Assembly (NCBI GenBank): GCA_964016885.1
Contig: OZ024742.1
Location: 153,450,001 to 153,514,000 of the forward strand
From: Eledone cirrhosa
Taxonomy: Eukaryota
DNA: 64,000 nucleotides
Direction of reading: 5' to 3'
The notes under the pieces are model-generated. The model did not search any database and was not told the DNA's origin. It saw only the letters and a program-made list of their open reading frames with translations. Of this stretch, positions 9,574 to 63,040 are shown piece after piece (position 1 is the first letter of the stretch; each line of letters begins with the position of its first letter). A program made the position numbers and the translations under genes.

Positions 9574-9607
<34 letters not shown>

Positions 9608-9846
9608 GTAAGTATGCATGTATACGTACATACATATATGTATACAGACGTACAGTAGCATGCACATATATATATATATATACATATATACATACATATG
9701 CATACAGGTACACATACATATATGCACGTATCAGTTTAGCGGCGCTAACGTCGCTTTGTTCGTTTGTAAACAAACTGAACAGCCTGAATTTATGCCATAC
9801 GGTGTTAAGGCAACCACGTCACCTTTTTGTTCAACACTGACACAGG

Positions 9847-9891
9847 AACGATGTACTAGTTTCAAGCTTGTTAGCTATCATCAGCACCGTT
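9847..9891 (-). ncRNA. Minimal type I hammerhead ribozyme
   Basis: aacggtg-CTGATGA-t-agct(aaca)agct-t-GAAA-CTAGTA^-catcgtt. Confidence 0.92.
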
Positions 9892-10312
9892 TACCCATCT
9901 GCCAGATAGTTGAACGTTCGAAAGTATATACTTTCCTTATGAAAATTAACGGCTGAGCAGCCTAATTTGCATATTGAGTGAGTTAAATCGGTCAGGCATA
10001 CCGAAAACGATAAATTGAAACAAAATGAAAACGAAATTTCATTTCTCACTCTTAGTATGGCACTTACTTAAATGTAAGTATGCATGTATACGTACATACA
10101 TATATGTATACAGACGTACAGTAGCATGCACATATATATATATATATACATATATACATACATATGCATACAGGTACACATACATATATGCACGTATCAG
10201 TTTAGCGGCGCTAACGTCGCTTTGTTCGTTTGTAAACAAACTGAACAGCCTGAATTTATGCCATACGGTGTTAAGGCAACCACGTCACCTTTTTGTTCAA
10301 CACTGACACAGG

Positions 10313-10357
10313 AACGATGTACTAGTTTCAAGCTTGTTAGCTATCATCAGCACCGTT
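10313..10357 (-). ncRNA. Minimal type I hammerhead ribozyme
   Basis: Identical copy 466 bp from the previous one. Confidence 0.92.
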
Positions 10358-10804
10358 TACCCATCTGCCAGATAGTTGAACGTTCGAAAGTATATACTTT
10401 CCTTATGAAAATTAACGGCTGAGCAGCCTAATTTGCATATTGAGTGAGTTAAATCGGTCAGGCATACCGAAAACGATAAATTGAAACAAAATGAAAACGA
10501 AATTTCATTTCTCACTCTTAGTATGGCACTTACTTAAATGTAAGTATGCATGTATACGTACATACATATATGTATACAGACGTACAGTAGCATGCACATA
10601 TATATATATATAGTGCCATATATATATATATAGTGCCATACTAAGAGTGAGAAATGAAATTTCGTTTTCATTTTGTTTCAATTTATCGTTTTCGGTATGC
10701 CTGACCGATTTAACTCACTCAATATGCAAATTAGGCTGCTCAGCCGTTAATTTTCATAAGGAAAGTATATACTTTCGAACGTTCAACTATCTGGCAGATG
10801 GGTA

Positions 10805-10849
10805 AACGGTGCTGATGATAGCTAACAAGCTTGAAACTAGTACATCGTT
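10805..10849 (+). ncRNA. Minimal type I hammerhead ribozyme
   Basis: aacggtgctgatgatagctaacaagcttgaaactagtacatcgtt. 7-bp stem I, palindromic ACTAGT stem III, GUA site. Confidence 0.92.
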
Positions 10850-11146
10850 CCTGTGTCAGTGTTGAACAAAAAGGTGACGTGGTTGCCTTAACACCGTATG
10901 GCATAAATTCAGGCTGTTCAGTTTGTTTACAAACGAACAAAGCGACGTTAGCGCCGCTAAACTGATACGTGCATATATGTATGTGTACCTGTATGCATAT
11001 GTATGTATATATGTATATATATATATATATGTGCATGCTACTGTACGTCTGTATACATATATGTATGTACGTATACATGCATACTTACATTTAAGTAAGT
11101 GCCATACTAAGAGTGAGAAATGAAATTTCGTTTTCATTTTGTTTCA

Positions 11147-11187
<41 letters not shown>

Positions 11188-11659
11188 TATACACATATAT
11201 AACCGACCTGGACCCATTGCAATTGATGGTAAAATACAAATGCAAGGTTTCTATGACACCTAAATCTATAATACTGTCTGATTAAAACTATAAGCTTTTG
11301 GTATAAGGATCGAACAAGGAATATCATGCTATCAACAGGTATTTTGCTCTGCGCCAACTTTGTGAATGGCGCAGGGCTTTGTAAAAGCTCATGCGTAACT
11401 CAGAAGGGGAAAAACCCCAGATTTTTGCAAATGAATTCAGTACATATATATATATATATAGTTTAGGTGCTTCAGTGAATTACATTTTTGTACGCTCATC
11501 ATTTTAAGGGTAGACAAACGTCAATTATATACACCCCGTTCTATGACTGGTGTCTTTGTTTTATACAAGAAAGGCTAACAAACAAATATTACTAAGAGAT
11601 TCTCCGGTGCTCTAACAACACAACCAATCTACCGTTCTATTTATATGTATAAACATATT

Positions 11660-13669: not shown

Positions 13670-16600
13670 GGACGTACTATAGTGAGCTCGTAAGTTTGTT
13701 TTTTCTACGGTTTGAAATACGTTTCTCATTAATATTTTTGTTTCAAACGGGAAATAAGACTTTAGTCTTCGCTCCCAAGAAAGGACTCCCCATAATATTT
13801 GGGCCTTTGGCCCAAATATTTAAACTTTGTGTGTTTAAAAGAAAGCATTTATGGTGGAGTCACGCCGCCAAGTTTGAGTTTACTGTCTTGCGACAGCGAG
13901 TCAATCGTTGAGGCTAATAACGCTGCCCGTCCCGCAACAATTTTAAATGTAACAACACATCAGACAATATCACCAACACCAGCACCAACAACAATGAGAA
14001 CACTAATATAAATAAAAATGACAGCAGCCACACCAGCGATATTACCAAAAACAGTAAAAATAAAAGCAGTCGTGAACAAGAATGACAACAGCAGCAGCAA
14101 CAACGACTGCAAAACCAACAACAACTGCAATAATGACAACAACACCAACAACAGAAAGAACGTCAACAAAGACAACAATATCAACAACAGTGACAATCAC
14201 AACAAAAGCAAAAACATCGATATCAACGAAATCAACAACGAAATTAACACTACTAACCAGAACATAAACAGCGACAGTACAAACAGCAACAATACCAACT
14301 GCCCCAAAAACAACAACAACGGCGGCACCAAAGGCAACAAGGATAACAGCAACAACACCAACAAGAACAAGAACAACAACACCACCAACGACAACAAGAA
14401 ACAAACTTTAGCTGCGGCAGCAGCCAAAATGAGGCCATACTTCAGCATGGACCTCTCGAACAGAGTTGAAAAGTTGACCCAGGCCTGGAAGCTCAACAAG
14501 TAAGAGCAAACCTGGGCCAACTTAACTGTGCCGGTAGAAGCTATTGAAGCAGCGGAGCACAGAACGGTGCATTACAGATGTATCTCAGCAGAAACCAAGT
14601 GGGCCGCTTTAATTCCACCAGCAGATGTCGAAGTCGCGCTGAGGTGCATCAGGGATGACACTGAATACATGGGGAGGGGCAGACAATACGGCACCATTTC
14701 GGTGCTGTTTAAATCAGAAGCCCTCACTATGAAACATACTATGACACCTTGCAAAAGCAGCAAGGTCGTAATGTACCCCCCCCCCCCCCCTCACACACAC
14801 ACACACACACATGCGAAAAAGAACGGCCCGTCTTCGCATTCCCAGAATTCCACCAGGACTTGACATGTGATGGCTTCTGGGATGTGTGATTGTGGAGTGG
14901 ACAGATACAGAACTGACAGAGGAGGACTGGTCCGGGGTTGACCTGGAGATACTTCTCCAGATCAGGCCGGAGAATGCCAAAATATCCCGAAACACATCCG
15001 CCGTCTTCAGAATGGGACGGTCATACACATTATGACTGGGGGCAAAAAGCCACATTCTTTCGTTTGTGGGGAAAGAAAACGAATTGCGAGCCTTCTGCCC
15101 TCAACTGCTGAAAGATGCAAGGGATCAAAGGGCTCCACTGGTGCCAACGCAGGGCCAGGACCACAACCAACACCAGCACCGGCAAATCACCAGCAACAAC
15201 ACCAATAGAAAGGCCACCACCAACATTGAACACCCAGGGGGGAAACCAGGAAAGTTGGCAAATGCCCCCTCCCCCCAAAAAATTCACACATCAATAAGAA
15301 CATAGACACACACAGAGACACACTTACAGACACAGACTCTTCATCTACCAGTAGTGAAGATGAGGGAAAACCCAAATCCCCCAAAATACAAAAAAGGAAA
15401 CAGAAAAAAAACTCACCAAAGCACAAAAACACCCACAATAAAAGATGCAGACACCACCCACGCAAACATCTCCACAACAACACCAACATCAACACCACCA
15501 TCACCATCACCAGAATACCCCAAACGCAAATAATCTAAACAGACGCAAGAACAAATACACACACAAACATCTGAAACCACAGACACGGCACTCACAACAA
15601 ACAGAGACACAACCAAAACAACACCATCAAAACCATCACCACCACAGCCACGCAAACAAATAAAATCGCACCAACAAAACATACAAAACTTTGTGCTCGT
15701 CAGGAGGTCCAACAAGGAACTGATAGTCCTCATAGCACGAAGTGAAGAAATACAAAAAAGAGGGGGGAATATTCTAATCGAGCACATTTCGCATGCCGGA
15801 AGATTTGTTTCTGGTGCGAATGTCGCTTGATTTATACAAAGAGATACGAGACAGCTTTCTTCGGGACGTGGGAACCCCGAACGTAAAAACCACTTCAAGA
15901 CTTTTTAAGGGATTCCCAAAAGAATCCCCACCAACTATGGAAGTCGAATCACCCGGCCTTCACAAGAGCCCGAAAGGTAAGTAAACCTGTCCTCTCCCTT
16001 TTAGCATGCCAACATGGCTGTATTAAGAATAGGAAGTTTAAATGTTCGAGGCCTGGGACAGTCCTGGAAGCAAGGTCACCTGCTGAACGACATCAGGTCT
16101 CTAGAAATGGATGTCATTGCCGTCAGCGAGACCAGAATTTCTGACACGCGCGCACTAGCCCCCATTTTCGACGACTATCAGATCTTCGCATATGTTAGTC
16201 GGCTAATGGGAGGTGGGTGGTAGTGCTGTTTAGGGAAGGCCTGGATCTCGAGGTAAGTTGCTGGTCCTGGGCGTGAACAATAACGAAGCTGGTGCCTTTA
16301 GACTGGTGGCGTCTACGCCCCTACTCAGGCGGGACGGCTGGACTTCTTTAGAAGCCTGGAAGCGTTTCTGGGTACGTATCGCCCTTTACTGTTAACGGGG
16401 GAATGGAACCGCATTTTAGACGCACGCTGGGACTGTGTAGGAGTATCCGATAGGAGCGGGGGGTGCAAAAGCCTCAAGTACCTGATCTGCCATTTCCATC
16501 TGTCTGACAGGTGCCGACTAGATTTCTCTAATGCGCCAGTGTGGACCTGGAACAAACGCATATGGTCATCTAGATCGTATATAGTCACGATATTCATCAG

Positions 16601-18920
16601 GAGCATAGACAGAAATAGTGTAAGCTGTCCACATTTAAAACAGTCGCCTATTCAGATCACAAGTTTGTGATCTGTATGGTCGACCTAGATAAGACGTGTA
16701 GGTTAGGACCTGGTTACTGGAAGCTGAACATGTTATTTACGGCACGTAAGGCTTACAGGACCGGGTCAACAATTTAGTTAGGAGAAAGTTGACAGTGGAA
16801 GTCGTCAACAATAGATGGTGGTGGTGGTGTGTGTGTGTGGGGGGGGGGGGGCTCTCAAAAGAGAGATGAGAGTAATGTCAATAGAATTTAGCAAAGAAGT
16901 AGCGTTAGAGAAAAACAGAAAGGATGGTGAGCTGGTAGATAAGTTAGACGAGGCTATTTGTAGTGACGTTGCAACTGGCGTGCTAGCGGCAGAATGGCAT
17001 TAATCATTTCTTCAATGCGAAACACGAAGATTGCATTGTCATAGCTAAGGAACGTGCTCTGAGAAACGAGGGAACCAAATTTATTCGATGGCCCGCGTGG
17101 CAGAGGCGCAGCGTGGTAATAAAGCCAGCTGAAAGATTCCAAGCGGATTTGTGAGGCCTTTCGCCAACATTTTGCTCGGTTTTTTCGGGGGAAGTGGCGA
17201 GGCAGAAATGGTAGCGGACTTCAGTCCCTACCTCGGAGGCTTGCCGCAACTCTCGATGGTCGACGCTGAGCGCTGCGAAAGGCCGATTACTTTAGCCGAG
17301 ATTCATGAAGCCCTTGTCCTGTGCATGAGGCGCAAGTCACCCGGTTTGTATGGTCTGCCCTACGAGCTTTACGTAAATATGCCAGACTTGTTCTCCGATC
17401 TCCTCGAAGCGCTCTACTGCAACTGGCAGCAGAACGGGAGTATTCCCAGTTCTCTGAGCCGGGGGGTAGTGACGCTGATATGCAAAGACGAGAACAAGTG
17501 GGACACATTAGACAATTTCAGGCTCAACACAGAGTTTAACATTTTGACCAAGGTGTTAGCGAAGAGGGTGGCGTTTGTCAGCAGGGATTTGGTTGGGGAG
17601 GCGCAAACTTGCGCAATCCCAACCAGGACTTTACACGACAACCTACACCTGAGGCGATACATCATAGAGAGGGTAGGGCTAAACCTGGCTTCAGTTGGGC
17701 TCTGATCAATTTAGACCAATCGAAAATATTCGATAGGGGCCACCATCGATACATGGAGGCTGTCCTCAAGGCGGCTGGCTTCGGTCCCGTCTTCAGAAGC
17801 TGGATCGCAGCAATGCACAGCGGCATCTGCTCAGTGGTCAAAGTTAATGGCCACCTCTCGGAACCATTTCAGATCTCCCGATCGGTCCGTTAAGGGTGTC
17901 CTCTCTCCTCCCTTATGTACGTATTGACTCTGGGGACTTTACTGCGGAAACAAGAATAGACCAAGACTAGGTGACTGGCATCTGGCATGCTGCGATGCAC
18001 TTACTGCCCTCTAGCAGGCGGGCAATGCGGTAAGTGGAACTTAAACACCCGAGTTCTATAGAGGATTAGTGGTGGGTAAGTGCGACGACGCACACTGAGA
18101 GACTCTGGGCGTCGACGAAGTCGAACTAACCAGTCTGTTCCAGAGGACTTTCGAGCCGGGGACGAAGGATAATTTCCAAAAATACCTCGCTTACTAGTGC
18201 TGCGGTGGAGCGCTGCCGGTTCGAGATAAACTCTACAGGCACGGAAGTGCTGTCAGACGGACTGGTCCGAGATACGAGCAGTGCGACAAAACCGTTCTAC
18301 ACGCACTCGTGCAGTGTCCGTGCATTACTAACTTGTGAAGTTATATCGAACAGCTGTTGTTGCGTGTAAAAAGGAACTGGCTATCGGCCGAGTACATAAT
18401 GAAGATCGATCCGCCGACTTCTTTTGGCCAGGAAGGGCAGGCAATTTTACTCTGTCTGGTGGCAGTAGCGAAAGAGGTTATATGGTTGAAAGGACTAAAG
18501 ACAGACACTTTTCTCCTCGGCCAGTCCCTCATCAACTTGGAGAGGAAGGTGAGGGTGGAGAGAGATGTGCTGCCCCCCAGTACATTTACTGAAAGGTTGG
18601 TGATCGTGGCGAGAATGGCCCGTGTGAGTGGGCCTACTCTGATCATGGGCCTGTAGGTGGGTGAATTTGAGGAGGAGAGAGGTGCCCTTCCCGGGTGCTC
18701 TTGAAGCGTCGGGTCGTTCAGGATTGGTGGGGTACATGAGTGAATCCTGGGTGGGTATCCCACCCCCCATTTGGGGAATTTTTCTTGTATTTTTCTTGTT
18801 ATTTTGTTATTGTAATTATTGTTTACACGTTGTATATTTAAACCCCCACTGTCACAGTCCTTTGTATTATCCCTAATATGTCGGCCCTTGTGGCCAATAA
18901 ATGAAATCATTATCATTATT
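13670..18920 (+). mobile_element. Near full-length but decayed Tx1/L1-like LINE (ORF1 about 14018-15984; ORF2 APE-RT about 16007-18656)
   Basis: APE start IGSLNVRGL..DVIAVSETR; RT motifs KSPGLYGLPYELY, LNTEFNILTKVLAKR, LDQSKIFDR, RSVR*GCPLS. Frameshifts and stops; aataaa plus (ATT) tail. Confidence 0.9.
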
Positions 18921-22019: not shown

Positions 22020-23112
22020 TGTTATACTTTGGGAGGGTCATGTTGCCAATAAGAAACACACGCACCAGTTACTTTCACTTCAATTTATTATAATAAATTT
22101 ATAATAAATATATAAATTTATAAATTTCTGGTTGGTTGGTTGGTTCCACAACCAGATAGTTGTTTATATATAGTCATAGTTATTTCGTCACACACTCTGT
22201 GACCTCTTCAGTGACTGGGGATTCCTTTCTTTGTTTCTGTGCCTCTCCTTTGTTCTGCCCTACGCCATTTTGTTTCTCTGTGTGTGGTGTGTGCTCAGTC
22301 TGCGCATGCGCCACATCCGGGTGTCTGTGTGTGTTTATGTTCATTTATTTATTTGTTTATTTATAGGTTACTGGTTGGTTGTTTGTTCTATGTGTGTGTG
22401 TGTTTTCATTTTGTCCTTAATTGTAAGTTGTGATGTTGCTGTTCCACTCATATTTTCTATTTAATTTTGGTTGTAATTCTTTTATGTTTATTGCCTCTGT
22501 AATTTGTCTAAACATTGCGTCTTTTCTGTGTGTAGATTCTATTTTTATTTCTATGTTCTCTAATTTACCCTTGTGTTCTATTTTAGCATGTTGGTAGAGT
22601 ACAGATGATTCTTTACTATCTTGAAGGTCTCGCCAGTGTTCATTTATCCGTTCCCCTACACTACGAGCTGTCTCACCTATGTACACTATATTTTTGTCTC
22701 TACATTGTCCTTCAGTACATCTTATGCTATACTCTACATTTCTAGTGTTACAGTTAATATGGGGGCTTATTTTACAGGTTTTACATTTCTTATCTATACA
22801 TGAGAGTCTTTGAAAAGGGTATGTCTTGTTTTTACGGAGGTACCTGGTCTTTCTACTATCTTTAATATTGAGTTTATGTTTATTTAGGGCCCTTCTAAAT
22901 TTGTAAGCTAATTAACCTCTAGGGGTTGTATCGATGAACATTACACTATGGTATTTATTGCTGTCATACCATGAGTTTATTCTATTAGCCTTGTTCCTAG
23001 TTCTTTCTATTCTATTCCAAAAGTTGCTCCTATACAAGGGGCAGGTCCCATTTATGTCATTATTTACCATTTTTTCCCATTTAGTTCTGGCTCCTCTATA
23101 CACTCTGATTTC
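22018..23112 (-). mobile_element. 5'-truncated Penelope-like element (RT linker, GIY-YIG, pLTR)
   Basis: NVEYSIRC..YIGETARSVGERINEH..RQITEAINIKELQPKLNRK. Hammerhead at 22172-22216. Confidence 0.9.
22172..22216 (-). ncRNA. Type I hammerhead in a PLE pLTR
   Basis: agtca-CTGAAGA-g-gtcac(agagtgt)gtgac-GAAA-taac-TA^-tgact. Confidence 0.8.
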
Positions 23113-23989: not shown

Positions 23990-25204
<1,215 letters not shown>

Positions 25205-25205
<1 letters not shown>

Positions 25206-26710
25206 CTGGAAAGCATCCAGCAAATAGCTAACTCCATCCACCAGAGTATTAGATTTAATATAGACTACCCAAGCAAATACCCCAACCATCGATTACCTGT
25301 ACTAGACACAAAACTCGGGTTAGATACTATCAATAACAAAAAACAGATCCTCCATTCCCATATGCCAAACCCATGACTTCCAAATATCTGATCCACCGAA
25401 ATCAGCTGTTTCGGACCACACCAAAATCAACATACTGATTGCCGATTTGGTACGGGTGATGAGAAACGTGTCCCGCATGTGCAACCCCCAAAACTAGAGA
25501 GACACATATAACACTTCATCCACCGTATGCAGTTCTCTGGTTACAATCAGAGTGATAAGATCAGAGTATATAGAGGAGCCTAAACAAAATGTGAAAAATG
25601 GTAAATAATGATACAAATGGGATCTGCACCTTGTATAGGAGCAAATTTTGGTATAGAATAGAAAGAACTAGGAATAAGTTAATAGAATAAACTCATGGTA
25701 TGATAGCAATAAATACCATAGTGTAATGTTCATCAATACAACCCTAGAGGTGAATTAGCTTACAAATACAGAAGGGCCCTAGATAAACATAGACTCAATA
25801 TTAAGATAGCAGAAAACCAGGTACCTCCATAATAACACTTATTAGAAATACATACCCTTTTCAAAGACCTCCCTGTATAAATAAGAAATGTATAATCTGT
25901 AAACTAAGCCCCCATATTAACTGTAAAACTAGAAATGTAGTATATAGCATAAGATGTACTCAAGGACAATGAAGAGATAAGAATATAGTGTACATAGGTG
26001 AGACAGCTCGTAGTATAGGAGAACGGATAGATGAACAGTGACGAGAGCTTCAAGATAGTAAAGAATCATCTGTACTCTACCAAGATGCTAAAATAGTACA
26101 TAAGGGTAAATTAAAGAACATAGAAATAAAAATAGAATCTACACACAGAAAGCCGCAATGTTTAGACAAATCACAATGGCCACAAACATAAACGAACACC
26201 AATCAAATTTAAATAGAAAGCATGAATGGAATAGTAACATCACAACTTACAATTAAGGACAAAATGAAAACACACACAAACATAGAACAAACAACCAACC
26301 AGTAACATGTAAATAAACAAGTAAATAAACAAATATAAACACACACATACACCCGGATGTAACACATGCGCAAACTAAGCACACCATACACACAAAAACA
26401 AGATGGCGTAGGACAGAATAAAGGAGAGGCACAAAAACAAAGAAAATAATCCCCAGTCACTGAAGATGTCACAGAATGTGTGACGAAAGAGCTTTGGCAA
26501 TATATGAACAATCGTCTGGTTGTGAACCAACCAACCAACCGGAAATTTATGTATTCCTAAATTTATAAATTTAATTTGTAATAGATTGAAGTGAATGCAG
26601 CTGGTGCATGTGTTTCTTATTGGCAACATGACCCTCCCAAAGTATAACAATATCGGTTTCAACACACATTTTCAGATAAAGTATCTTGCTAAACACATTC
26701 AGAAACGACA
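25205..26710 (+). mobile_element. 5'-truncated decayed PLE (RT thumb, GIY-YIG, pLTR with HHR 26455-26499); inverted relative of 22018-23112
   Basis: LPVLDTKL..INILIADLVRVMRNVS..MQFSGY..YIGETARSIGERIDE; tail is the reverse complement of 22018-22420. Confidence 0.88.
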
Positions 26711-26717
26711 TATATAT

Positions 26718-26751
<34 letters not shown>

Positions 26752-27150
26752 TGGAATAAATGCTCTGAAATAGCGATGTATATGTGAATATAGACATAGA
26801 ATATTCGAAAATATTCTGTATGTTTATAATAAACATTTTGAAGACCCTGAAGATTTCTAACAAGAATGAAACGCGTAGATTACTTCCCTTGCTTTTATCG
26901 AGAATCTAATTGTAATACGTGACGTATTCTATTCTATAGCGATTGGGTCTTCAAAATGTTTATTATAAACATACAGAATATTTTCGAATATTCTATGTCT
27001 ATATTCACATATACATCGCTATTTCAGAGCATTTATTCCAATTTCTAATTTCTGCCGGACCGGCAACCGCTCTTTCAAACCAGTTCCTGTACACAGCTAA
27101 GTATTCTATAAGTCTCTAGCTGTGTCATTCTCGATAAAAGCACTGGATAT

Positions 27151-27193
27151 GTAGTCCTGAAGATTTCTAACAAGAATGAAACGCGTAGATTAC
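27151..27193 (+). ncRNA. Minimal type I hammerhead ribozyme
   Basis: gtagtc-CTGAAGA-t-ttct(aaca)agaa-t-GAAA-CGCGTA^-gattac. Stem I extended by the 16-bp pair attctcgataaaagca/tgcttttatcgagaat. Confidence 0.93.
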
Positions 27194-27460
27194 TTCCCTT
27201 GCTTTTATCGAGAATCTAATTGTAATACGTGACGTATTCTATTCTATAGCGATTGGGTCTTCAAAATGTTTATTATAAACATACAGAATATTTTCGAATA
27301 TTCTATGTCTATATTCACATATACATCGCTATTTCAGAGCATTTATTCCAATTTCTAATTTCTGCCGGACCGGCAACCGCTCTTTCAAACCAGTTCCTGT
27401 ACACAGCTAAGTATTCTATAAGTCTCTAGCTGTGTCATTCTCGATAAAAGCACTGGATAT

Positions 27461-27503
27461 GTAGTCCTGAAGATTTCTAACAAGAATGAAACGCGTAGAT
27501 TAC
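27461..27503 (+). ncRNA. Minimal type I hammerhead ribozyme
   Basis: Identical core 310 bp downstream. Confidence 0.93.
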
Positions 27504-27770
27504 TTCCCTTGCTTTTATCGTGAATCTAATTGTAATACGTGACGTATTCTATTCTATAGCGATTGGGTCTTCAAAATGTTTATTATAAACATACAGAATA
27601 TTTTTGAATATTCTATGTCTATATTCACATATACATCGCTATTTCAGAGCATTTATTCCAATTTCTAATTTCTGCCGGACCGGCAACCGCTCTTTCAAAC
27701 CAGTTCCTGTACACAGCTAAGTATTCTATAAGTCTCTAGCTGTGTCATTCTCGATAAAAGCACTGGATAT

Positions 27771-27813
27771 GTAGTCCTGAAGATTTCTAACAAGAATGAA
27801 ACGCGTAGATTAC
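27771..27813 (+). ncRNA. Minimal type I hammerhead ribozyme
   Basis: Identical core 620 bp downstream of 27151. Confidence 0.93.
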
Positions 27814-27935
27814 TTCCCTTGCTTTTATCGAGAATCTAATTGTAATACGTGACGTATTCTATTCTATAGCGATTGGGTCTTCAAAATGTTTATTATAAAC
27901 ATACAGAATATTTTCGAATATTCTATGTCTATATT

Positions 27936-27970
<35 letters not shown>

Positions 27971-29185: not shown

Positions 29186-30493
29186 CTACAATATCATATT
29201 CAATGATAAGACACGTTGCCGCATTTCTTCATCAGGAATTGGCAAATTGAAATCTCTTAAACATTTGAAATGAACTTGAAGCAGTTGCTCATAATTGAGC
29301 AAAATAATAGCTTTCATCAAATGTTCATCATCGACCTGAAGATGATGCCTAAAATCATCAGCCATAATTCCCCAATGGCGTTCAAATAACTCTCTTGGAT
29401 CGGCAGGATTGCAGAATCCTAGAATCGTGACAAACAACTGCCCTATTTGAACTGGCATCTGTGTTGTTCCTGCAGCTTCCATGGCATTCAGCATCATCCT
29501 GAAAGAGTCCCATATGCTGACACACAGCCTGGTATATTTCATATTCCACGCCATTGATTGTTTTCAAATCAGCGAAGCTCTGTTTACCTCTCGAAAAATC
29601 ATTATGCAACATAATTTGGAGATAAAACACATCACCAGATTCTGGATGAACATTACAAACCCGTCCACTAGTCATGAATCTCAACTTTTGTTTTCTATCA
29701 TTCCATTTCTTTCCCTTCTCATCCCACGTATAGTGCGAAGGGAAATCGCAGTAGAGTTGCCTTTGATCAGGGTTCAAAGGATGTGCCCTATTATGCTTGA
29801 ACCACTCAGTCAAGGAGGTAGTGCGTTAGCAATTCTTTCGACACCTCTTCTAGTGTCCTGAAAACAGACCATTTGCCTATTCTCTAAGTGAACCGTCAGT
29901 TTCTGAACGCTGGGTTTGCGTTCATTGAGATTAAAATGGAACAATCTCCAGCAAGCTTCGCTAGATCCAATAGAGCGAACATAATGGAACCTGCCAACTT
30001 CATCTCCATGGTTCGCTTCCTCATTCCTGACATTGATCATGGCCCGATAATGACCTTTGTAAACATATTTGAATAGATATTTGCAAGCTTTCACTGAGCT
30101 ACACATTTCCACAGTAATATGACAACGATATATCATAATCAAATATGGATTGTATGGCACAACCCGTTGATTTGTAACCTGTCGACCGTTTACATTTTCA
30201 ACCAAACCGCCATCTGCAGGCGACCGTCTGCTGTATGAGGGATGAGTATCCCCATCGTTCCAGGAAGTGTTCGTGACAAAAGATTTCGGAAACTGCTTAC
30301 TACATCGGCCATTTTTCATGCAAGGCGTTTTCTCATTTGCAACTCCGCATTGGTTGTGCACCATTGACTTTGCCACCAAGTTGCGTAGTGCCTCATTCTC
30401 CGGCAGTTCAGCACACACAATGCTGTCGACATCTTCAGCACATCTCAATTTGCAATCTCTATGTAAAATGATCAGAAAATGTGCATGTGGCAA
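29186..30493 (-). pseudogene. Helitron Rep HUH/Y2 catalytic region and linker, frameshifted
   Basis: PHAHFLI, MVHNQCG..PCMKNGRCSKQFPK, VVPYNPYL, KYLFKYVYKG, EACWRLF, LYCDFPSHYTW. Confidence 0.9.
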
Positions 30494-30561
30494 TCCTCTT
30501 TTTGGAATTCAATTACGTATGTAAAAGCAACTAAACCTCCAAAGATTTCCTCTTTTCCACA

Positions 30562-31413
30562 TCATCCATTATCTTTTTCAGATATCATTTCGAATCCTCT
30601 TGCCTCAACATCAGTACGGTCCTTTGGCTGTTGTCCTGGCAAAAGTGCATCCTTAATATCAGTACATTCAGGATTGCATGTAACCGTTATAAACAAACCT
30701 GTCTTTCCAAACTTTCTGACAATAGCCATTGCATCCTGATAGCGAATGTTCATATATCTCGGGCCGCCGATGAACGACGATGGCAAAATGATGCGTCGAT
30801 CAATTTGCTTGTAATTGGCATCATCGGCTGTTATCGCATCCTGTATATTATTATACAATTCAGCTCTGATATGTTGCTGATGTATAGCTATATAATTTAG
30901 CCTTTGATGTTCGATCTTTGCGAATGCCATACAACAGTATTCCTGGGACAATCTGTTGGCTTGAAATAGCGCATTTCTCTGCTGATTCCTCCTGTTCAAA
31001 TGGAACGCGTAAAAGTCGCGGATCGAATTATTGTGTCTATTGCCACCTCCCTGTTGATGCTGATTCTCATGATCATCTAAATGAACAGACATGTTCCATC
31101 CATTTTCACCTTTTCGGATTAAAAGAACATAATGCAATGGATAGTATGCCCTATTTGACTCATTGATAGTCTTGAGACCACCATCTCTGCGATTGAGGAC
31201 GATATCTCTCGATCGAGCCTTATCGTTCATCAACACAGCAACTTCACGAAATCCTTCAGGGTCATTATATCGCCGTTCGTGTTGATTCCTTGGCACTGCG
31301 TCAGTCCTAACCACCAATGTTTTCTGCTGAACATTTTGCAGTTCAGCCACCAACATGAAATCCATAACATAAGGATTACACTGCTTAAGCCATGATTGCA
31401 AATCACGGATCAA
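30562..31413 (-). pseudogene. Helitron Rep N-terminal segment
   Basis: 283-aa ORF with YYPLHYVLL..GENGW, RLSQEY and GGPRYM motifs. Confidence 0.9.
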
Positions 31414-32574
31414 ATCAGTTAACCTAATGATGCAACTGCATAGATCTTCGTTTTAATATCCTTCCCACTTATACACTAACATAGAGGAAGGACAGAGGAC
31501 ACATGTCTCTTTCCTAACGCGTCCTTAGTTAGAAATAGAATATTTTCATTATTGTAAACATATACAGATTGCCCTTTAGTACCAGCCGATTAGATTGCTA
31601 CAATACATGCACAGATCAATTACTCACAGCTTAAGCACGAGGCACAAATATATACGCCGCCATTCCTGTAGTGCAACAATGGCACGCCTGGTATATAGAG
31701 TAATTTGATACTATTATGCACACATAATTTTGTACTATTAAGCACCATCATAAAAAATTATAGCGTTAGCAATGTTAATGAAAGCTACTAGCTAGCATTC
31801 AATTCTATTACTTTTGCTAAGTTATTACGATGGCTATGATATACCTGATACAAAAAAACCTTGAGGTATTTCTTATATGAAATAGGAATCCTTAATACTG
31901 TAGATTCTTAGCTAACTGCGGTAGCTCGTGAACCGAAATAACTAGAACTATCTTTAAGATTAATGGGAGATATTTTGGTGTTTTGAATACGAAAAATTAA
32001 TGAAGAAGGCGCCTTTCCCGGGCCAGAGAGCAACTGATGACTAGAAATTTATACGAGGTGGGGATACAGTAATAAATTATATATGCTTACCCTTTAAGCA
32101 AATCGTAAATAAAAATAAAATAAACAAACACATAAATTAACTACCCTAATCCCTTTGACTTAAATAATGCCGAAATTAAAATTTATCTCGTTTTTTTGTT
32201 TTTTTCTTTTCTAAATTACAGTAGCTAAGTACAATCTCATTTTACAGATAAGAAATTAGATTTGAGAAGGTAGAATTCTCTCTTAATTGCGTGTATACTC
32301 TACTAGTAAGCCTAATACCTTCACGTCAATAGGTCTAGTCACACACTTTCTCCTTCTTTTCATTCCGTCTAGCCCCTTCATTGCTGCACTGAATGTAATA
32401 AAACTAGATAATTCAAGTCGTTTATCGGGATAAAGATGGACTAAACCAGATATCTTTACGAAGACGTACATTAGGCCAAATGTAGCCCCATATCTCCCCA
32501 CCCCGATCGCTAAACCCTCCCTGAGAAAAACGAAAAACAAAAAAACAAGGGACATTTTGAGATTTTTTGGGGCA

Positions 32575-32994: not shown

Positions 32995-34000
32995 TAACGT
33001 TAAAAGAGATAGAAGGCTAAACAATGCAATATGTACTGTAACAAAAAGTAAAAGTAACTTACCTGGTAATATTTGTTGTTCTTCTTTTATGTTTCGAATA
33101 TTCCGGGACCTGAATCGAAGGCGGCGTAGGCATAAGCCCTGCTCTAACTGCTGTTTCATGAAATTACCACATTGCAGTGAAAGCATAACCTCGCTATCCG
33201 CAGAACTATCTACAAAGAAGGGCTGGACATACAATTAGCACACTCAGGTCCTTCACTGAGTGGATACCTCTCTAAAAGGCATTCCACATATAACAACAAT
33301 CAATGCTCGCTGATTAACCGCCCTATCCGTGATACAGATATGTGCCAGCGGACACATGTGGAATACCAAATTGAATGCAACAAATATAAAGAGTTCTACA
33401 TTGGCAGAACAACTGGAAACCACCACAATCGCATTGAAGAAAACCTCAACACACACGCATCCTCATTCCAAAAAACACATCGACAAATGAAATGTAGAAA
33501 CATCAACCAGTATATTACCGTTAACATTAAAGCCAGTGAGAGAAATGTTGGCAATTCAAAAATTAAGGAAGCCTTGCCCATACGTCGACTCAACCAGCAA
33601 ATAAATAATAGATTAGAACTCAGCACACAGAAATTGATATAAAAAGATATGCCCACGGGCATACAAACTAAACATCTCATAGAAAAAAGATAATTGATTT
33701 CGCGAAATACTATATTGGCAATTGACGTCATTCTCGTGGAAAGCGAAATAACCATGAAAAAAGGCTTGAAAACAACTTTAAAACAAAATCCAAATTTAAT
33801 CCCCAAAAGAAGGAATTGGAATATTATCCACTGAAAGATCCTTAAACCCTGATAAAGCGACTTTTAGGCCCCGAAATATTGGACAGATAAACGAACAAAA
33901 AGGAAAAGGATTACCAGGTAACTTAACTTGACCTTTCGTTGCTTCATCTTACAGTCCATTTTGCATTGTTTAGTCTTCTATCTCTTTCAACGTTATATAT
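32995..34000 (+). mobile_element. Decayed PLE GIY-YIG fragment with an inverted tail arm (32995-33115 versus about 33865-33997)
   Basis: VEYQIECNKYKEFYIGRTT..KIKEALPIRRLNQQINNRLE resembles 42286-43137. Confidence 0.8.
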
Positions 34001-41530: not shown

Positions 41531-43906
<2,376 letters not shown>

Positions 43907-52374: not shown

Positions 52375-53570
52375 GTTTTTTTTAGTTTATGATTACACGA
52401 TATAACTAATTCCTGTCGTTTATTTAATAAGATATCCTTAGACTTCATTATTTCAAATAGTTCTTGGGAACATAATCTACATTCATTTCTATTATTTTGA
52501 TAAAGGGGTGGCTCTTTTGAGCACACTCCAGGTCAAATCATATTCTATATTCTTATTTTTATAACTATTGATTTTTTCTGGTAGAGATGTTGTATTAGCC
52601 AGTGCGGCATTTTTAAAACTATGCTTGTGGGTATTAAACCTTGTCTTAAAATTGTTAGAGGTAGCTCCTATATATGAGCAAATAGAATCTTTAGTTTTAA
52701 CATTACATTTATAGACTATGTTGTTAACAAGACAATTCCCTTTTAATGGGCAGTTTGCTTTGTTTCTACAGTTACATCCTTTCGTTAATTCTGTATTTGA
52801 GGAGATATTATGGTTAATTTGATGTACTGGTGGTATACTTATGGTTTTCTTACATTTATATGCATTATAGGCACTTATATTTTGTTTTATGTTATTTGTT
52901 GTAGAGTATGAGAATTTAACTGTAGACCTATTTAAGATTTGATGGTATTTGTGGTTTGGCGGGAAGTTTTTCTCAAGGATATAAAAAAATTTGTTAGCAA
53001 TATTATCCTTAACTTGTAAATTAAAAGGAGCATTATACCAAGTAACCCGTCTATTACGGTTTCTATGTTGTTTATTATTTTTATTATTTTTATAGGTTGT
53101 ATCGTGATTTTTACTAGGAGGATTAATGTTAATGATCTCACCACAACCATTTTTAGTTATATTTGTAGATTTAGGTGTTTTATCCTTTTTATTAGGAGTT
53201 TTATTATTAATATTTATTAGAGTTGTATGATGAGTAGTTTTTTGAGAGTTACTATACTTTATATTAGAAGATTTGGTATTTTGGGGTATAGTGTGGGTGG
53301 CATTTAGGTGTGTACTTTTCATTTGGTGTTTGTTGGTAATATTATGTTGTATGCTTTCAGTATTTTTAGTAGAAGGTATATACTCTAATCTATTTTTGTG
53401 GCCACTTCTATCTAGAGCTTCGTTATAGAAGGTCGCATTTTTATCAAATACATCTTGGTTAGAAGAAAGGTTAGAAATTCTAAGTGATATATTATATGCA
53501 AGGTTTTTAAGGATAGATTTAGGGTGATTAGATTGTGAGTGTATGTAATGTAAGTTTTGGTTAGGTTTAT
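52375..53570 (-). pseudogene. Naiad-type RT thumb, CNCx5C Zn finger and GIY-YIG, with a frameshift near the C-terminus
   Basis: RRVTWYNAPFN, CNCRNKANCPLKGNCL, IVYKC..YIGATSNNFKTRFNTH, then in a shifted frame CRLCSQE..LNKRQELVISCNH. Confidence 0.9.
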
Positions 53571-53667
53571 GGTTAGGTTTATATATATATGTTAGGTTTA
53601 TATATATATGTTAGGTTTATGGTTAGGTTTATATATATATGTGTGTGTATATATATATATATATATG

Positions 53668-56109: not shown

Positions 56110-56149
56110 TAAATAAAAGTAAAATGATTAAAATTTAGCTTCGTTTATT

Positions 56150-56204
56150 ACTGCTATATATATTTCAGTGACAGCCATCTTTGGCTGTGACCTCTTCAGG
56201 CAGT
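56150..56204 (-). ncRNA. Type I hammerhead in a pLTR
   Basis: actgc-CTGAAGA-g-gtcacagcca(aaga)tggctgtcac-t-GAAA-tatata-TA^-gcagt. Confidence 0.85.
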
Positions 56205-57421
56205 TTGAATTAGTATGGTATAGACAAGTACATATGTTGTTTAGGTGTATGATATTGTCAATACTCTGATATGCCCAGTTCCTTGTTGGGTTGTTAATTC
56301 ACTGGGGACCTGGAGTCATATGAATTCAAACAAACGAATTTTCGTGTCACAGGTCCCCTTCTCCTCTCATTGGTCAGTTATTAGAACATTCCTCATTCTA
56401 AGTGTTGTTATTTTTGGAGTTAGCTTAAAAATTGATAAAATGGTAGAAGGGACAAGGTGTTAAAGGAACAAAATAACCAAACAAGTGTCAAACTTCCCAT
56501 TGTTCAGTTCTGAGAGCATTCCTCAGTCAGAAGTCTACAGAATTCTTTCTGGGGTGAGGCTCCCTGTAGTGTTTTTGCCTGCTATTGTTCAGTACATTTG
56601 ACCTCCACCATTATTTTGGTACTGTTGTTGTTGTAGTGGTCAGCTTATATCTTGCTGCTGCTAACAATTTAGAAGTATCCAGTTTGTGTTTTCTCTTCAT
56701 CCCTCCCGCCACCATCGTAGTGGTAGTGGTGGCGGTGGTGTTGGATATGGGGGGGGGTTATTTCATGTATATGAAGAAATATAAGGCAATAATTGAAGAA
56801 AACAGAAAATAAATAAATGATATAATAAAATAAAATAATTAATATAATTTGTGTAATTTGAAAATAAATAAATAAATAGAGAATAAAGAATAAAGAGTAA
56901 ATGACAGATTGGTGAAAAAGTAATGATAATGTATATGGAGATGTGAGAAATAATGTAGGATAAAGTGTGTGTGTGCGTGCTATAACCAATCTCAAGGTCA
57001 GAATATGTTGGATAGATTGGAATGATACAATATGTTAAGATGAGATATTCAATGTGTTTGTGTTATAATCTATCTCAACTTATAATAAATATAAGGTGAT
57101 ACAGTGAAGAGGGCAGAAAACAAATAACAAATTAATAAAGAGAAATCAAGATTTAAGATTGGAACTTGAAAGTCAGAAATCTGGTAAATTAATAGTGTTT
57201 GTGTTATAGATGTTGGCCAAATTATTATGGATGTGTCCGATTCTATCTCTAGGCTATCATGGTGTCTGCTCCGCCTGGGTTGTTCCCTATGGCTTGAGGG
57301 GAGTTCACAACCTAGGGTATTGTTATTGCCCATAGAGCTTGAGTGAGGTCTGGCCGAGATGTGTTTTCATGTTCTGTAGAAGTCCCTATGGCTTGAGGGG
57401 AGTTCACATCTTCTTGTGTTG

Positions 57422-59330
57422 CTACTGTCCATATATTCTGAGAAAGGTGCCGGTTCTAAGGTGTCTGCATGTCCCGAAGAAGTCGGTTCTGAGGTTTATC
57501 AGGCCGCTTCCACCTCTTAGTATCTCGAGGGTCTCGTTCAGGCATAGTTTGCATATGTGTGGTACTTTCCTGATTATGTACCAGGCCAGAGAGTATGGGG
57601 TCCTGTCCAGCTTAAGCTTCCAGATCAGGTTGGAGAGAGCTGTGCTTTTCCTTTTGGCCTCCTTCTTGAATGAATGGCGATGGTTGTACCAGCGGTCCTT
57701 AAAGCTCGTTGATGTGGCTCCTATGTAGAGGTGTTCGGAGTTGGGGGTTTTAACCCTACAACCGTACACTATGTTCTTCTTGAGACATTCATTACCAAGG
57801 GGGCATGATTCAGGGTTTCTACAGTTGCAGAGGGTGGTCGGCCTCTGCGTGCCTAGATTAGGGTTCTCATTATGTGTTACATGTTGGTCTTCCCCCATGC
57901 TCGGTGGGGGGTCCTTGGGTCTGTTTGTGTTTCTTGGGTGGACTCTGGGTCCCCCCTTCCCTCCTTTCACATGGTTCTGCTGAGTGTTTGTATTGCCATC
58001 TTCTGGTTGTGTGTTGCTTTTAAGCCTACTTCTGTTGATGCTAGCTATGTGTTGGGCCAAATTTCTCGTGGTGGAATACGAAAGCTTCACAGTGTGTCTG
58101 TTGAAGATTCTGTGGTATCTGTGGTCCCTCGGGAAGCATTTGTCAAGTGCTCCAAAGAATAATCGGGCCAAGCTTTTCTTTAGGGCCGCTGAGTAGGGTG
58201 GGTTGTACCACGTGATTTGTCTGTCTCTCCTCCTATATGTGTGGGTTGGGGGCTTCGTGATTTGTTGGAGATTTGTTGGTTTGCTGGTGGTTTCCGCACT
58301 GTTGCTTCCCTTTTGGGCTCTATACTTTTTGTTATCTTCGCGGCCCGGATTTGTGGGGTGGTTGTTGTCCGCCCCGGGAGATCCATCGTGGGGTTTTCGC
58401 CCGTTTCCCCCCCACCCCACCCCCACGTGTCCTGCGGTTGGGGCTGTCCGTCCTGGGGTAGTTAGCATCACGCCTGAGACTGCTACTCATATTGTGCTCC
58501 ATCTCGTGGTCAATCGCCCTAGTCCCCACCGCCCGTGTGGTGGTGTCTGGTACATGGTGCCTATTTGATTCTGCTCTGCCTGTATTGTTAGGGTTCGCCC
58601 TCCCCCCTCTGGCAACGCGGTTGTGGGTGTCTGTTGGGCTATCCACCTCCTGGCTTTTCGGACTATATGTTATATTTTGTCCACGTGCCGCCTTCTCTAG
58701 AGCTGTGTTGTAATATTCCGCGTGGTTGTTGAATATTTCCTTACTTGCGGACAGGCTGGAGATCCTGTCCGAGACACTCTTCACCACTGCCTTGGTTATG
58801 GATCTAGGGTGGTTTGATTTGGCGTTAACATATACTAGTTTCTCGTTGGGCTTGTGGTAGGGGTAGTATTGCTCGGTGTTCAGGTTTAGGGGGGTGTCTA
58901 GGAAGTTAACTACCTTCCTATTTGGGTCTATTTATATGCTGAGCCCCAGGTTCTTAAAGAAATGGCGAATACGGCTCCTCTTAAAGAAATGGCGAATACG
59001 GCTCCTCATACCCTCATACTCCTGACTTCTGGTTGGGTTTCCGGAGAATTTGAGGTTGGATATAATGTTAATCATCTCGTTTTCAAACTCCTCCATTAGT
59101 CTGTTGTGTGGGGGGGGGGGGGATTCCTCCTTGATCGAAAAAGGTACTCCATGTTTTCTGTGTTTGTAGTTTTCTGCGTTCCTCTTTCGAAGTGGAACGC
59201 CTTCCATCTCATCCTACGGATGAGGGAGTCCGTACTCTTGATGAGATCACTGGTGTATTCTCGTTTATCAGGTAGGGGGATGTCCTTCAGTGACGCTAAG
59301 GTTGCCAGTTTATCAATAGTGACTTAGGTC
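57422..59330 (-). pseudogene. Naiad ORF with the RT core deleted
   Basis: N-terminal region joins directly, at about 59035, to FKNLGLSI*..VVNFLD..PYHKPN..SNHP. No catalytic DD motif; frameshifts. Confidence 0.85.
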
Positions 59331-59519
59331 TGCTACTGTTTGAAGCGCTCAATCCGTGTGGGAGCTAGACAGATTTTGAGTTTATGTTGGTTGTATACCA
59401 ACACCTCAGTATGCAGGCTGGAGCACTCGACGAAGTGCGCAGGTTGGTTTGGTTACTCCGGAGTAGTGTAAAATAAAGTTAAATAAAAGTCAAATGATTA
59501 AAATTTAGCTTTGTTTATT

Positions 59520-59574
59520 ACTGCTATATATATTTCAGTGACAGCCATCTTTGGCTGTTACCTCTTCAGGCAGT
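59520..59574 (-). ncRNA. Type I hammerhead in a pLTR
   Basis: Second pLTR copy. Confidence 0.85.
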
Positions 59575-62096
59575 TTGAATTAGTATGGTATAGACAAGTA
59601 TATATGTTGTTTAGGTGTATGATATTGTCAACACTCTGATATGCCCAGTTCCTTGTTGGGTTGTTAATTCACTGGTGAACTGGAGTCATATGAATTCAAA
59701 CAAACGAATGTTAGTATCACAGGTCCCCTTCCCCTCTCATTGGTCAGTTATTAGAACATTCCTCATTCTAAGTGTTGTTATTGTTGGAGTTAGCTTAAAA
59801 ATTAATAAAATGGTAGAAGGGACAAGGTGTTAAAGGAACAAAATAACAAAAAAGTATCAAACTTCCCATTGTTCAGTTCTGAGAGCATTCCTCAGTCAGA
59901 AGTCTATAGAATTCTTTCTGGGGTGAGGCTCCCTGTAGTGTTTTTGCCTGCTATTGTTCAGTACATTTGACCTCCACCGTTATTTTGGTACTGTTGTTGT
60001 TGTAGTGGTCAGCTTATATCTTGCTGGTGCTAACAATTTAGAAGTATCCAGTTTGTGTTTTCTCTTCATCCCCGGGGCGGACAACAACCACCCCACAAAT
60101 CCGGGCCGCGAAGATAACAAAAAGTATAGAGCCCAAAAGGGAAGCAACAGTGCGGAAACCACCAGCAAACCAACAAATCTCCAACAAATCACGAAGCCCC
60201 CAACCCACACATATAGGAGGAGACACAGACAAATCACGTGGTACAACCCACCCTACTCAGCGGCCCTAAAGAAAAGCTTGGCCCGATATTCTTTGGAGCA
60301 CTTGACAAATGCTTCCCGAAGGACCACAGATACCACAGGATCTTCAACAGACACACTGTGAAGCATTCGTATTCCACCACGAGAAATTTGGCCCAACACA
60401 TAGCTAGCATCAACAGAAGTAGGCTTAAAAGCCACACACAACCAGACGATGGCAATACAAACACTCAGCAGAACCATGCCCCCTTGGTAATGAATGTCTC
60501 AAGAAGAACATAGTGTGCGGTTGTAGGGTTAAAACCCCCAACTCCGAACACCTCTACATAGGAGCCACATCAACGAGCTTTAAGGACCGCTGGTACAACC
60601 ATCGCCATTCATTCAAGAAGGAGGCCAAAAGGAAAAGCACAGCTCTCTCCGACCTGATCTGGAAGCTTAAGCTGGACAGGACCCCGTACTCTCTGGCCTG
60701 GTACATAATCAGGAAAGTACCACCCGATAAAGGGGGATCTTGCATATGCAAACTATGCCTGAACGAGACCCTCTAGATACTAAGAGGTGGAAGCGGCCTG
60801 ATAAACCTCAGAACCGACTTCTTCGGGACATGCAGACACCTTAGAGCCGGGACCTTTCTCAGAATATATGGACAGTAGCAACACAAGAAGATGTGAACTC
60901 CCCTCAAGCCATAGGGACTTCTACAGAACATGAAAACACATCTCGGCCAGACCTCCCTCAAGCTATATGGGCAATAACAACACCCTAGGTTGTGAACTCC
61001 CCTCAAGCCATAGGGAACAACCCAGGCGGAGCAGACACCATGATAGCTTAGAGATAGAATCGGACACAGCCATAATAATTTGGCCAACATCTATAACACA
61101 AACACTTTTAATTTACCAGATTTCTGACTTTCAAGTTCCAATCTTAAATCTTGATTTCTCTTTATTAATTTGTTATTTGTTTTCTGCCCTCTTCACTGTA
61201 TCACCTTATATTTATTTCAAGTTGAGATAGATTATAACACAAACACATTGAATATCTCATCTTAACATCTTGTATCATACCAATCTATCCAACATATTCT
61301 GACCTTGAGATTGGTTATAGCACACACACACACACTTTATCCTACATTATTTCTCACTTCTCCATATACATTATCATTACTTTTTCACCAATCTCTCATT
61401 TACTCTTTATTCTTTATTCTCTATTTATTTATTTATTTTCAAATTACACAAATTATATTAATTATTTTATTTTATTATATTATTTATTTATTTTCTGTTT
61501 TCTTCATTTATTGCCTTATATTTCTTCATATACATGAACTAACCCGCCACCCCTATCCAACACCAACACCACCACCACCACTACGATGGTGGCGGGAGGG
61601 ATGAAGAGAAAACACAAACTGGATACTTCTAAGTTGTTAGCAGCAGCAAGATATAAGCTGACCACTACAACAACAACAGTACCAAAATAATGGTGGAGGT
61701 CAAATGTACTGAACAATAGCAGGCAAAAACACTACAGGGAGCCTCACCCCAGAAAGAATTCTATAGACTTCTGACTGAGGAATGCTCTCAGAACTGAACA
61801 ATGGGAAGTTTGACACTTTTTTGGTTATTTTGTTCCTTTAACACCTTGTCCCTTCTACCATTTTATCAATTTTTAAGCTAACTCCAACAATAACAACACT
61901 TAGAATGAGGAATGTTCTAATAACTGACCAATGAGAGGAGAAGGGGACCTGTGACACGAAAATTCGTTCGTTTGAATTCATATGACTCCAGGTCCCCAGT
62001 GAATTAACAACCCAACAAGGAACTGGGCATATCAGAGTATTGACAATATCATACACCTAAACAACATATGTACTTGTCTATACCATACTAATTCAA

Positions 62097-62151
62097 ACTG
62101 CCTGAAGAGGTCACAGCCAAAGATGGCTGTCACTGAAATATATATAGCAGT
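62097..62151 (+). ncRNA. Type I hammerhead in the inverted pLTR
   Basis: Third copy. Confidence 0.85.
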
Positions 62152-62294
62152 AATAAACGAAGCTAAATTTTAATCATTTGACTTTTATTTAACTTTATTT
62201 TACGCTACTCCGGAGTAACCAGACCAACCTGCGCACTTCGTCGAGTGCTCCAGCCTGCATACTGAGGTGTTGGTATACAACCAACATAAACTCA

Positions 62295-62494: not shown

Positions 62495-63040
62495 GATATT
62501 AAACAAATGGAAACTACATTTATAAAACCATATTTATTTCATTATATATATTTCAGGGATATCATATTAAACATATGGTATGCCCTCGTCAGACAAAATA
62601 CAATATATAAACAGTTTTATAAATAAATTTGACATACATTAAAACTTTACAACTTCCATAACAACTTTTTAAATGGAAGTTGTAAAGTTTTAAGGTATGT
62701 CAAATTTATTTATAAAACTGTTTATATATCGTATTTTGTCTGAAGAGGGCATACCATATTTTTAATATGATATCCCTGAAATATATATAATGAAATAAAT
62801 ATGGTTTTATAAATGTAGTTTCCATTTGTTTAATATTATATATATTATATATATATATATTATACATATATATATATATAATATATATATATACGATATT
62901 AAACAAATGGAAACTATATTTATAAAACCATATTTATTTCATTATACATATTTCGGGGATACCATATTAAAAATATGGCATGCCTTCTTCAGATAAAATA
63001 CAATATATAAACAGTTTTATAAATAATTTTGACGTACCAT
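62495..63040. mobile_element. Short fold-back (62495-62835) plus a third arm; hammerheads at 62536-62599 (minus), 62733-62796 (plus) and 62936-62999 (minus)
   Basis: atttt(a/g)t-CTGA(A/C)GA-(a/g)ggcat(a/g)ccatat..atatg(a/g)tatccc-(t/c)-GAAA-tat(a/g)tata-atgaaat. Confidence 0.82.

Follow-up and report, generated by a model that had tools for sequence, protein, structure and literature searches.

The 64,000-nucleotide stretch of Eledone cirrhosa DNA analysed here (the window) contains an insertion made of two arms of a 466-bp repeat, which meet 5' end to 5' end between (TA)n tracts (Table 1). The original prediction had described about 2.2 units on the minus strand and 1.1 inverted unit, near-identical and hence young, and the measurements agree: the arms comprise 2.17 and 1.12 units, the left arm has two complete units, 9603-10068 and 10069-10534, that show 0 differences over 466 positions and are followed by a third, partial unit of 78 nt that extends to 10612, and the 521 nt of 10632-11152 are the reverse complement of 10010-10530 without a single mismatch. 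Outside the microsatellite, the window unit carries at every position the majority base of the sampled family copies and therefore belongs to the youngest subfamily. As had also been stated, the ribozyme-sense 3' ends face outward into (TA)n (at about 9579-9603 and 11150-11180) and the unit contains its own TA/CA microsatellite. The (TA)n on both sides masks any target-site duplication. With unit positions (u) numbered from the predicted hammerhead cut site, the outer ends of the two arms lie at unequal positions, u251 on the left and u310 on the right. The description of the array as folded back on itself, in turn, does not hold; the arms are separated by a 19-nt junction without a central palindrome. 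This junction yields a 20-bp duplication (10597-10640), from which we infer slippage during microhomology joining, and its sequence occurs once in the assembly.

Table 1. Coordinates of the two-armed insertion and its hammerhead motifs, in window positions
Feature	Position	Strand	Basis
Left (TA)n target remnant	9579..9602	none	sequence
Left arm, 2.17 tandem 466-bp units; 3' end u251 (short end), 5' end within the internal TA run	9603..10612	-	unit comparison
Type I minimal hammerhead motif, predicted cut after 9854; core CTGATGA...GAAA CTAGTA at 9884	9847..9891	-	motif scan
Type I minimal hammerhead motif, predicted cut after 10320; core at 10350	10313..10357	-	motif scan
5'-5' junction, 19 extra nt drawn from both arm ends	10613..10631	none	sequence
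Right arm, 1.12 units; 5' end u256, 3' end u310 (long end)	10632..11152	+	unit comparison
Type I minimal hammerhead motif, predicted cut after 10842; core at 10812	10805..10849	+	motif scan
Internal TA/CA microsatellite, differs between loci	about 10968..11093	+	sequence
59-nt 'tail' between the two fixed end sites; at this locus at the right outer end only	11094..11152	+	end mapping
Right (TA)n/(CA)n target remnant	11153..11201	none	sequence

The type I scan detected a hammerhead motif in both complete units of the left arm and in the right arm but none in the partial left-arm unit, and the earlier claim of an intact hammerhead with an ACTAGT palindrome in each unit stands for the former and fails for the latter. 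In the plus-strand motif, stem I is formed by 10805-10811 and 10843-10849, stem II by AGCT and AGCT with a basal U-U, and stem III by the palindrome ACTAGT. This is a weak minimal form, marked by that basal U-U and by a stem III of 1-2 bp. Stem III is predicted to cost about 5 kcal/mol in the monomer, whereas an ACUAGU duplex between two copies is predicted at -6.8 kcal/mol; the available text of PMC4209133 describes hammerheads with a palindromic, weak stem III as a dimer-dependent type. At the gathering score, Rfam gave no match for the window array; in a scan by E-value the sole hammerhead match was HH9, at 18.5 bits against a cut-off of 52, and matches to Rfam microRNAs were rejected as caused by the microsatellite. 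Covariation in the hammerhead derives mostly from the single row of the 310-bp family described below, and within the 466-bp family only one stem I pair changes on both sides. A type I hammerhead motif is present in each tandem unit and can be described as a predicted ribozyme that scores below the Rfam thresholds.

A dispersed family with two fixed ends

The family is dispersed throughout the genome, as the assignment to retrozymes implied: a pattern search of the 3.0-Gb assembly with a 40-mer of the ribozyme returned 10,122 exact matches against 0 for the reversed control, and the motif is therefore not due to chance. When older subfamilies are included, the ribozyme matches amount to 23,441. 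No reverse transcriptase (RT) plus GIY-YIG open reading frame was found in the 466-bp unit, the longest stop-free frame of which, after circularisation, encodes 114 aa; the element is not an autonomous Penelope-like element (PLE) and is PLE-like in its insertion only. The unit has a GC content of about 0.36, and its RNA is predicted to be highly self-paired (z -7.8 for the whole unit and -4.4 without the microsatellite, 60 shuffles). By every sequence-level criterion, the 466-bp family is a non-LTR retrozyme. It shares with the metazoan members of this group, as far as the available texts describe them, a non-coding tandem unit of a few hundred bp with one type I hammerhead each, a low GC content, an RNA predicted to pair with itself, dispersal as monomers and multimers in the thousands, and the presence of PLEs in the same genome, and with the axolotl motifs the basal U-U of stem II and the short palindromic stem III. 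It differs from them in having a microsatellite of its own and in lacking a homologous PLE end repeat among the families sampled. The accessible parts of PMC7229834 and bioRxiv 10.64898/2026.07.22.740005 describe no inverted arms, fixed starts or (TA)n targeting for those elements, some of which have known activity and circles, whereas those of the 466-bp family are putative.

The claim that this is a second, unrelated retrozyme family is correct for its dispersed, retrozyme-type organisation and for the body of the unit, which is unrelated to that of the 310-bp hammerhead family at 26750-27943; it does not extend to the hammerheads, which are 76% identical over 37 nt between the two families. 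The 310-bp family has a like anatomy, with a 98-nt inverted arm, flanking (TA)n and two ends separated by about 34 nt; it was also seen at a second locus (L034). An older subfamily of the 466-bp element, with a shorter unit that is about 75-79% identical, lies at 24599-25165 and ends at the long site before (TA)n.

The arms were compared over 91 stretches, namely 90 loci and the window. Fifty of the loci (L031-L080) are all the clusters obtained from the first 100 listed 40-mer matches and are unbiased except for an intact ribozyme, while the other 40 (L081-L120) were picked by end-junction patterns and are biased to young copies bearing those ends. Of the nearly duplicate loci L106 and L107, the second was omitted from the analyses of template and haplotype, of junctions and arm lengths, and of partner divergence. 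All 64 adjacent pairs of opposite-strand arms are divergent, that is, 5' to 5' with the 3' ends outward. An inverted arm could be aligned at 27 of the 50 unbiased loci and is short at 3 more; the remaining 20 show no such arm. The outer end falls at u251 or at u310, two sites 59 nt apart, in 129 of 138 arms (those of at least 150 nt), and TA repeats follow 59 of 64 anchored ends without read-through.

The two ends are not combined freely. Of the 64 pairs, 51 are mixed, with a short end on one arm and a long end on the other, 3 have two short ends, none has two long ends, and 10 include another end (21, 3, 0 and 6, respectively, in the unbiased clusters); the three pairs with two short ends violate the rule of one end of each type. 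On contig C1, where two genome-wide lists of end patterns were crossed, a divergent long end lies within 10 kb of 19 among the 31 short ends listed, against 0.16 expected, and same-type pairs number 0. Many solo arms of the unbiased set (L038, L048, L053, L072 and others) have their 5' end in the internal TA run, at about u131. This suggests that the unit microsatellite anneals to the target to close the insertion, the position of these 5' ends being partly an alignment effect.

The anatomy of the window locus is the known signature of PLE insertion, a point that the original prediction did not make, and the family displays its components: an inverted 5'-truncated copy, two start sites, a one-sided tail and a (TA)n target. 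In the portions of PMC8557442 at hand, Craig et al. give the inverted, 5'-truncated copy and a tail confined to one end as hallmarks of PLE insertions, and Frangieh et al. found the PLE protein PAc to cut and extend both strands, starting at two internal RNA sites that bound the tail (PMC11167929). The likeness to insertions of EN+ PLEs, as these are presented in part by PMC8557442 (Fig. 2) and PMC3846280 and by PMC11167929, comprises the head-to-head inverted arm, the two internal starts that define a tail at one end, the AT-rich or (TA)n target, the partial tandems and the microhomology at the 5' junction. The 466-bp family differs from those elements in lacking an RT/endonuclease frame, in its tail of 59 nt instead of 30-40, and in that the two arms alike can be built of many copies of a small closed unit.

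Two probable primings on one continuous template

We consider it highly likely that priming was driven by a PLE enzyme from both ends of the target, and likely that the non-coding 466-nt retrozyme was pasted into (TA)n by PLE enzymes copying one continuous RNA from both cut ends. In 11 of 50 mixed pairs neither arm could have been copied from the other on grounds of length, and the two arms of L081, u253-310 and u68-251, have next to no sequence in common. The longer arm can be of either type (24 against 26), arm lengths are uncorrelated (rho -0.14, p 0.35), and the two 5' ends of a pair usually lie at different unit positions. The length-incompatible pairs, the indifference as to which arm is longer and the lack of correlation therefore call for two primings on a sense template. 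Together with the family-wide 5'-to-5' arms and the rule of one short and one long end, the 11 loci support the earlier proposal that both ends of one target were used.

The template is continuous across the predicted ribozyme cut. The 5' ends are distributed evenly over the unit, 5 of 120 lying within 10 nt of the cut site where 5.15 are expected; in the later set, 40 of 60 arms cross the site, 25 of them at least twice, and 254 of 256 copies preserve the exact spacing across the cut. Template jumping between cleaved monomers was rejected, as neither a pile-up nor indels occur at the cut. Variants point to a shared haplotype: 85 are present in all copies of both arms, 11 of them private to their locus among the 91 stretches (out of several thousand loci), compared with 2 fixed in one arm only, 5 in subsets of copies and 114 in single copies. 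In the 13 diverged pairs, partner arms mismatch at 1.5% of positions compared with 4.4% after shuffling (0 of 2000 shuffles as low), the partner being strictly the closest arm in 7 of the 13 and a foreign arm equally close in the other 6. Collapsed microsatellite alleles agree in 22 of 39 pairs, against 12% across loci. Such sharing is expected alike if a single molecule was copied, if two transcripts came from the same source locus, or if gene conversion took place afterwards.

The 5' junctions carry microhomology of at least 2 nt in 33 of 44 insert-free cases, against 18% at random, the overlaps being BLAST overlaps that are perhaps slightly inflated relative to the exact-match control; inserts are present at 14 of the 62 junctions, and overlaps exceed 10 nt at 4. 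In L1 twin priming, two primers at one target act on one RNA and the resulting inversion is joined by microhomology. The 466-bp family differs in that its second start is fixed 59 nt from the first, without poly(A), and in that its arms overlap in sequence and traverse repeated units. Classical twin priming, in which the first cDNA halts at the second primer, was rejected, since inspection revealed no pile-up of 5' ends near u251.

A circle accounts most simply for the continuity of the template, its uniformity and the long arms, and a circular template is modestly favoured over a long, uncleaved linear one. As has been shown for retrozymes of other animals, the array would be transcribed, neighbouring hammerheads would pair through the ACUAGU palindrome and cleave as dimers, and the monomers would be ligated into circles. 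A PLE endonuclease/RT, probably a dimer, would nick both (TA)n strands; the two 3'-OH ends would prime within the sense RNA, one at u310 and one at u251, 59 nt apart, and both polymerases would continue for random distances through many units before the two cDNA ends are united by microhomology-mediated end joining. On this view the multimer would arise in the act of insertion. More tentatively, with a chance that we place just below even, each two-armed locus may be the trace of a dimeric Penelope-type RT that rolled twice round a single covalently closed 466-nt RNA from the two sites, primed by both strands of one cut microsatellite, and wrote satellite-like multimers as it inserted them. 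A circular-RNA route was proposed for metazoan retrozymes by Cervera and de la Peña in 2020, according to the text available (PMC7229834).

The most serious alternative, which we hold to be less probable, is that the same two-ended priming acted on long uncleaved array transcripts, either one molecule or two from one source locus, with the ribozyme mostly idle and no circle needed. PAc inserted RNA that had not been processed, and its ribozyme showed no activity in the absence of protein (PMC11167929); of nine Xenopus dimers, only one was cleaved in vitro, as the accessible part of bioRxiv 10.64898/2026.07.22.740005 reports, and a long uncleaved transcript is for these two reasons a real alternative to the circle. 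It also agrees with the weakness of the hammerhead and with the 8 of 174 within-arm variants found in a subset of copies, and a homogeneous source array would likewise yield shared variants. Linear templates, however, can only shorten arrays, and the longest arm, in the youngest subfamily, reaches about 15 units (L080); some loci are uniform for one microsatellite length (9 of 9 at L090 and 8 of 8 at L115); and 244 of 257 copies have a hammerhead core that is intact or altered at no more than the tolerated N7, albeit in a sample of which 50 loci had been chosen for an intact core.

A single priming, after which the cDNA folds back or primes itself and the endonuclease resolves the second end, is an improbable origin of the arms. 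Arkhipova et al. put forward self-priming for PLE palindromes, in the part of PMC3846280 available, and the idea would account for variants common to both arms and is compatible by length with the window locus; junctions palindromic at hairpins of the unit, which are compatible with fold-back, occur at a few loci (L037, L056 and L113; about 3 of 64 junctions). Self-priming fits only these few junctions of the family, and may have operated at a minority of loci; as a general mechanism it is refuted by the non-overlapping arms, and the arm lengths and 5' positions set out above equally oppose it.

We give still less credence to the possibility that the unit is the end repeat of an autonomous PLE and that the arms are 5'-truncated stumps amplified locally by unequal crossover, a model taken from the accessible text of bioRxiv 10.64898/2026.07.22.740005. 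One locus (L044) does join an arm directly to Hydra coding sequence. Against this model, the long arms (to 6.1 kb and more) consist purely of units and none enters a recurring upstream element, the 5' ends are evenly spread over the unit, multimeric structure with clean, fixed outer ends can be found in both arms, and the PLE families examined have no homology to the unit, which may nevertheless descend remotely from a PLE end repeat. An assembly or chimeric-read artefact, to which the 100% identity of the arms and the single-copy junction, known from the assembly alone, could be attributed, is extremely improbable, because the flanks are unmirrored, the centre is offset, and the same anatomy of fixed complementary ends, never convergent, recurs at dozens of loci, diverged ones included; the structure in the window is real.

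Candidate mobilisers and the wider context

Circular or linear, the template would have been copied by a PLE enzyme, and the genome contains at least three young Hydra-type PLE families with long open frames (894, 830 and 821 aa) and tails of about 98, 137 and 90 nt. A young autonomous Hydra-clade PLE (family A) lies within the window at 56143-62290; it is two-armed and includes a partial tandem, with its short end on the left and its long end on the right, and intact copies that encode about 890 aa exist elsewhere. Its intact relative at L202 encodes 894 aa with the RWK, DKT and CxCX5C motifs that, in the part of PMC8557442 available, define the (TA)n-targeting Hydra clade. All 14 divergent pairs of family A (21 stretches) have one short and one long end, as do all 7 resolved pairs of a second family, B (9 fetched), and the two ends of a third, C, lie 90 nt apart. 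Hydra-clade PLEs resemble the 466-bp family in their (TA)n targeting and hammerheads, as noted in the same portions of PMC8557442, and two families tested here obey the rule of one short and one long end; they differ in having tails of 90-137 nt rather than 59 and no sequence similarity to the unit. Homology to the unit or its tail was found, separate retrozyme insertions aside, in none of 50 GIY-YIG loci, three Hydra-type and two DKG-type families, whereas first-look GIY-YIG candidates number 10,595 genome-wide and many PLE families exist beyond those sampled. Since no sampled PLE shares unit sequence, we infer the mobiliser from the anatomy; because of their dissimilar sequence and longer tails, the Hydra PLEs are candidates for it rather than an identified partner.

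Some loci join the retrozyme to other repeats. At L044 (2709-4150), an inverted Hydra-C long end and about 740 nt of Hydra-C coding sequence are followed by a retrozyme arm ending at u251; this single case is possibly one event, perhaps a template switch between PLE mRNA and retrozyme. Retrozyme arms are fused directly to other repeat families at L077, L039, L058 and L059, and L077 and L039 break the rule of one short and one long end. Such mixed-family junctions were not used to name a partner, as L077, and probably L039, is long-long. L206, where an array precedes a PLE frame, was rejected as a partner because the array is a separate insertion across a TA repeat of about 330 nt.

Other hammerhead-bearing elements accompany these families. 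A second Hydra-type family (830 aa) is present at 52495-53610 of the window and at L251-L253, with near-identical copies in head-to-tail 6.67-kb tandems of 3-5 units; read by eye, it carries an apparent hammerhead with a stem II of about 110 nt, and its full-length tandems may derive from a large circular template. A small non-coding hammerhead family (62543-62992, 23790 and many loci) has, by eye, a tail of roughly 90 nt like those of Hydra families A and C, of which it is likely a non-autonomous partner.

Neither the kind of element nor the PLE signature is new, and the 466-bp element itself represents no new class; a genomic link between the two was not found in the open main texts searched. 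In the text available, Li, Clavereau and Pollet (2026) connect retrozymes with PLEs through co-occurrence and end-repeat homology, invoke local amplification and leave the mechanism open (bioRxiv 10.64898/2026.07.22.740005), and a search of that text for 'tail', 'orientation' and 'target site' returned none of these terms. A non-autonomous PLE pair is reported in PMC9977147, in its accessible part without the two-armed anatomy. Both the genomic copying of retrozymes and the reason for the inverted arms and one-sided tail of PLEs are called unresolved in the portions available of PMC7229834, PMC8557442 and bioRxiv 10.64898/2026.07.22.740005. On this mechanism the family provides genomic evidence of unusual clarity: its young insertions number in the thousands, its 466-nt substrate has two starts mapped to within 1-3 nt, and intact candidate enzymes are encoded in the same genome, so that a circle versus a linear template, and one RNA versus two, can be tested. 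If two rolls round one closed RNA were indeed made, the family would supply direct evidence, at the level of the genome, of the circular-RNA route of animal retrozymes, and the tail and the inversion of PLEs would have a common explanation.

Beyond this assembly, 19 public sequencing runs under 15 coded labels, a metagenome included, contain at least half of the unit words. Four of these runs were examined: in one the unit was covered very deeply, in another thinly and by a mixture of old and young subfamilies, and in two not at all. Near-identical unit words in runs labelled as different organisms may reflect relatives, trace contamination or horizontal transfer, and we make no claim of the last. 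Elsewhere in the window, further PLE fragments with GIY-YIG-like frames and other hammerhead types occur at 22155-22911, 24190-24225, 26460-26516, 33181-33642 and 42286-43137, LINE-like RT fragments can be read by eye at about 14000-18000, and fragments of a Helitron helicase (PF14214) lie at 29810-31452.
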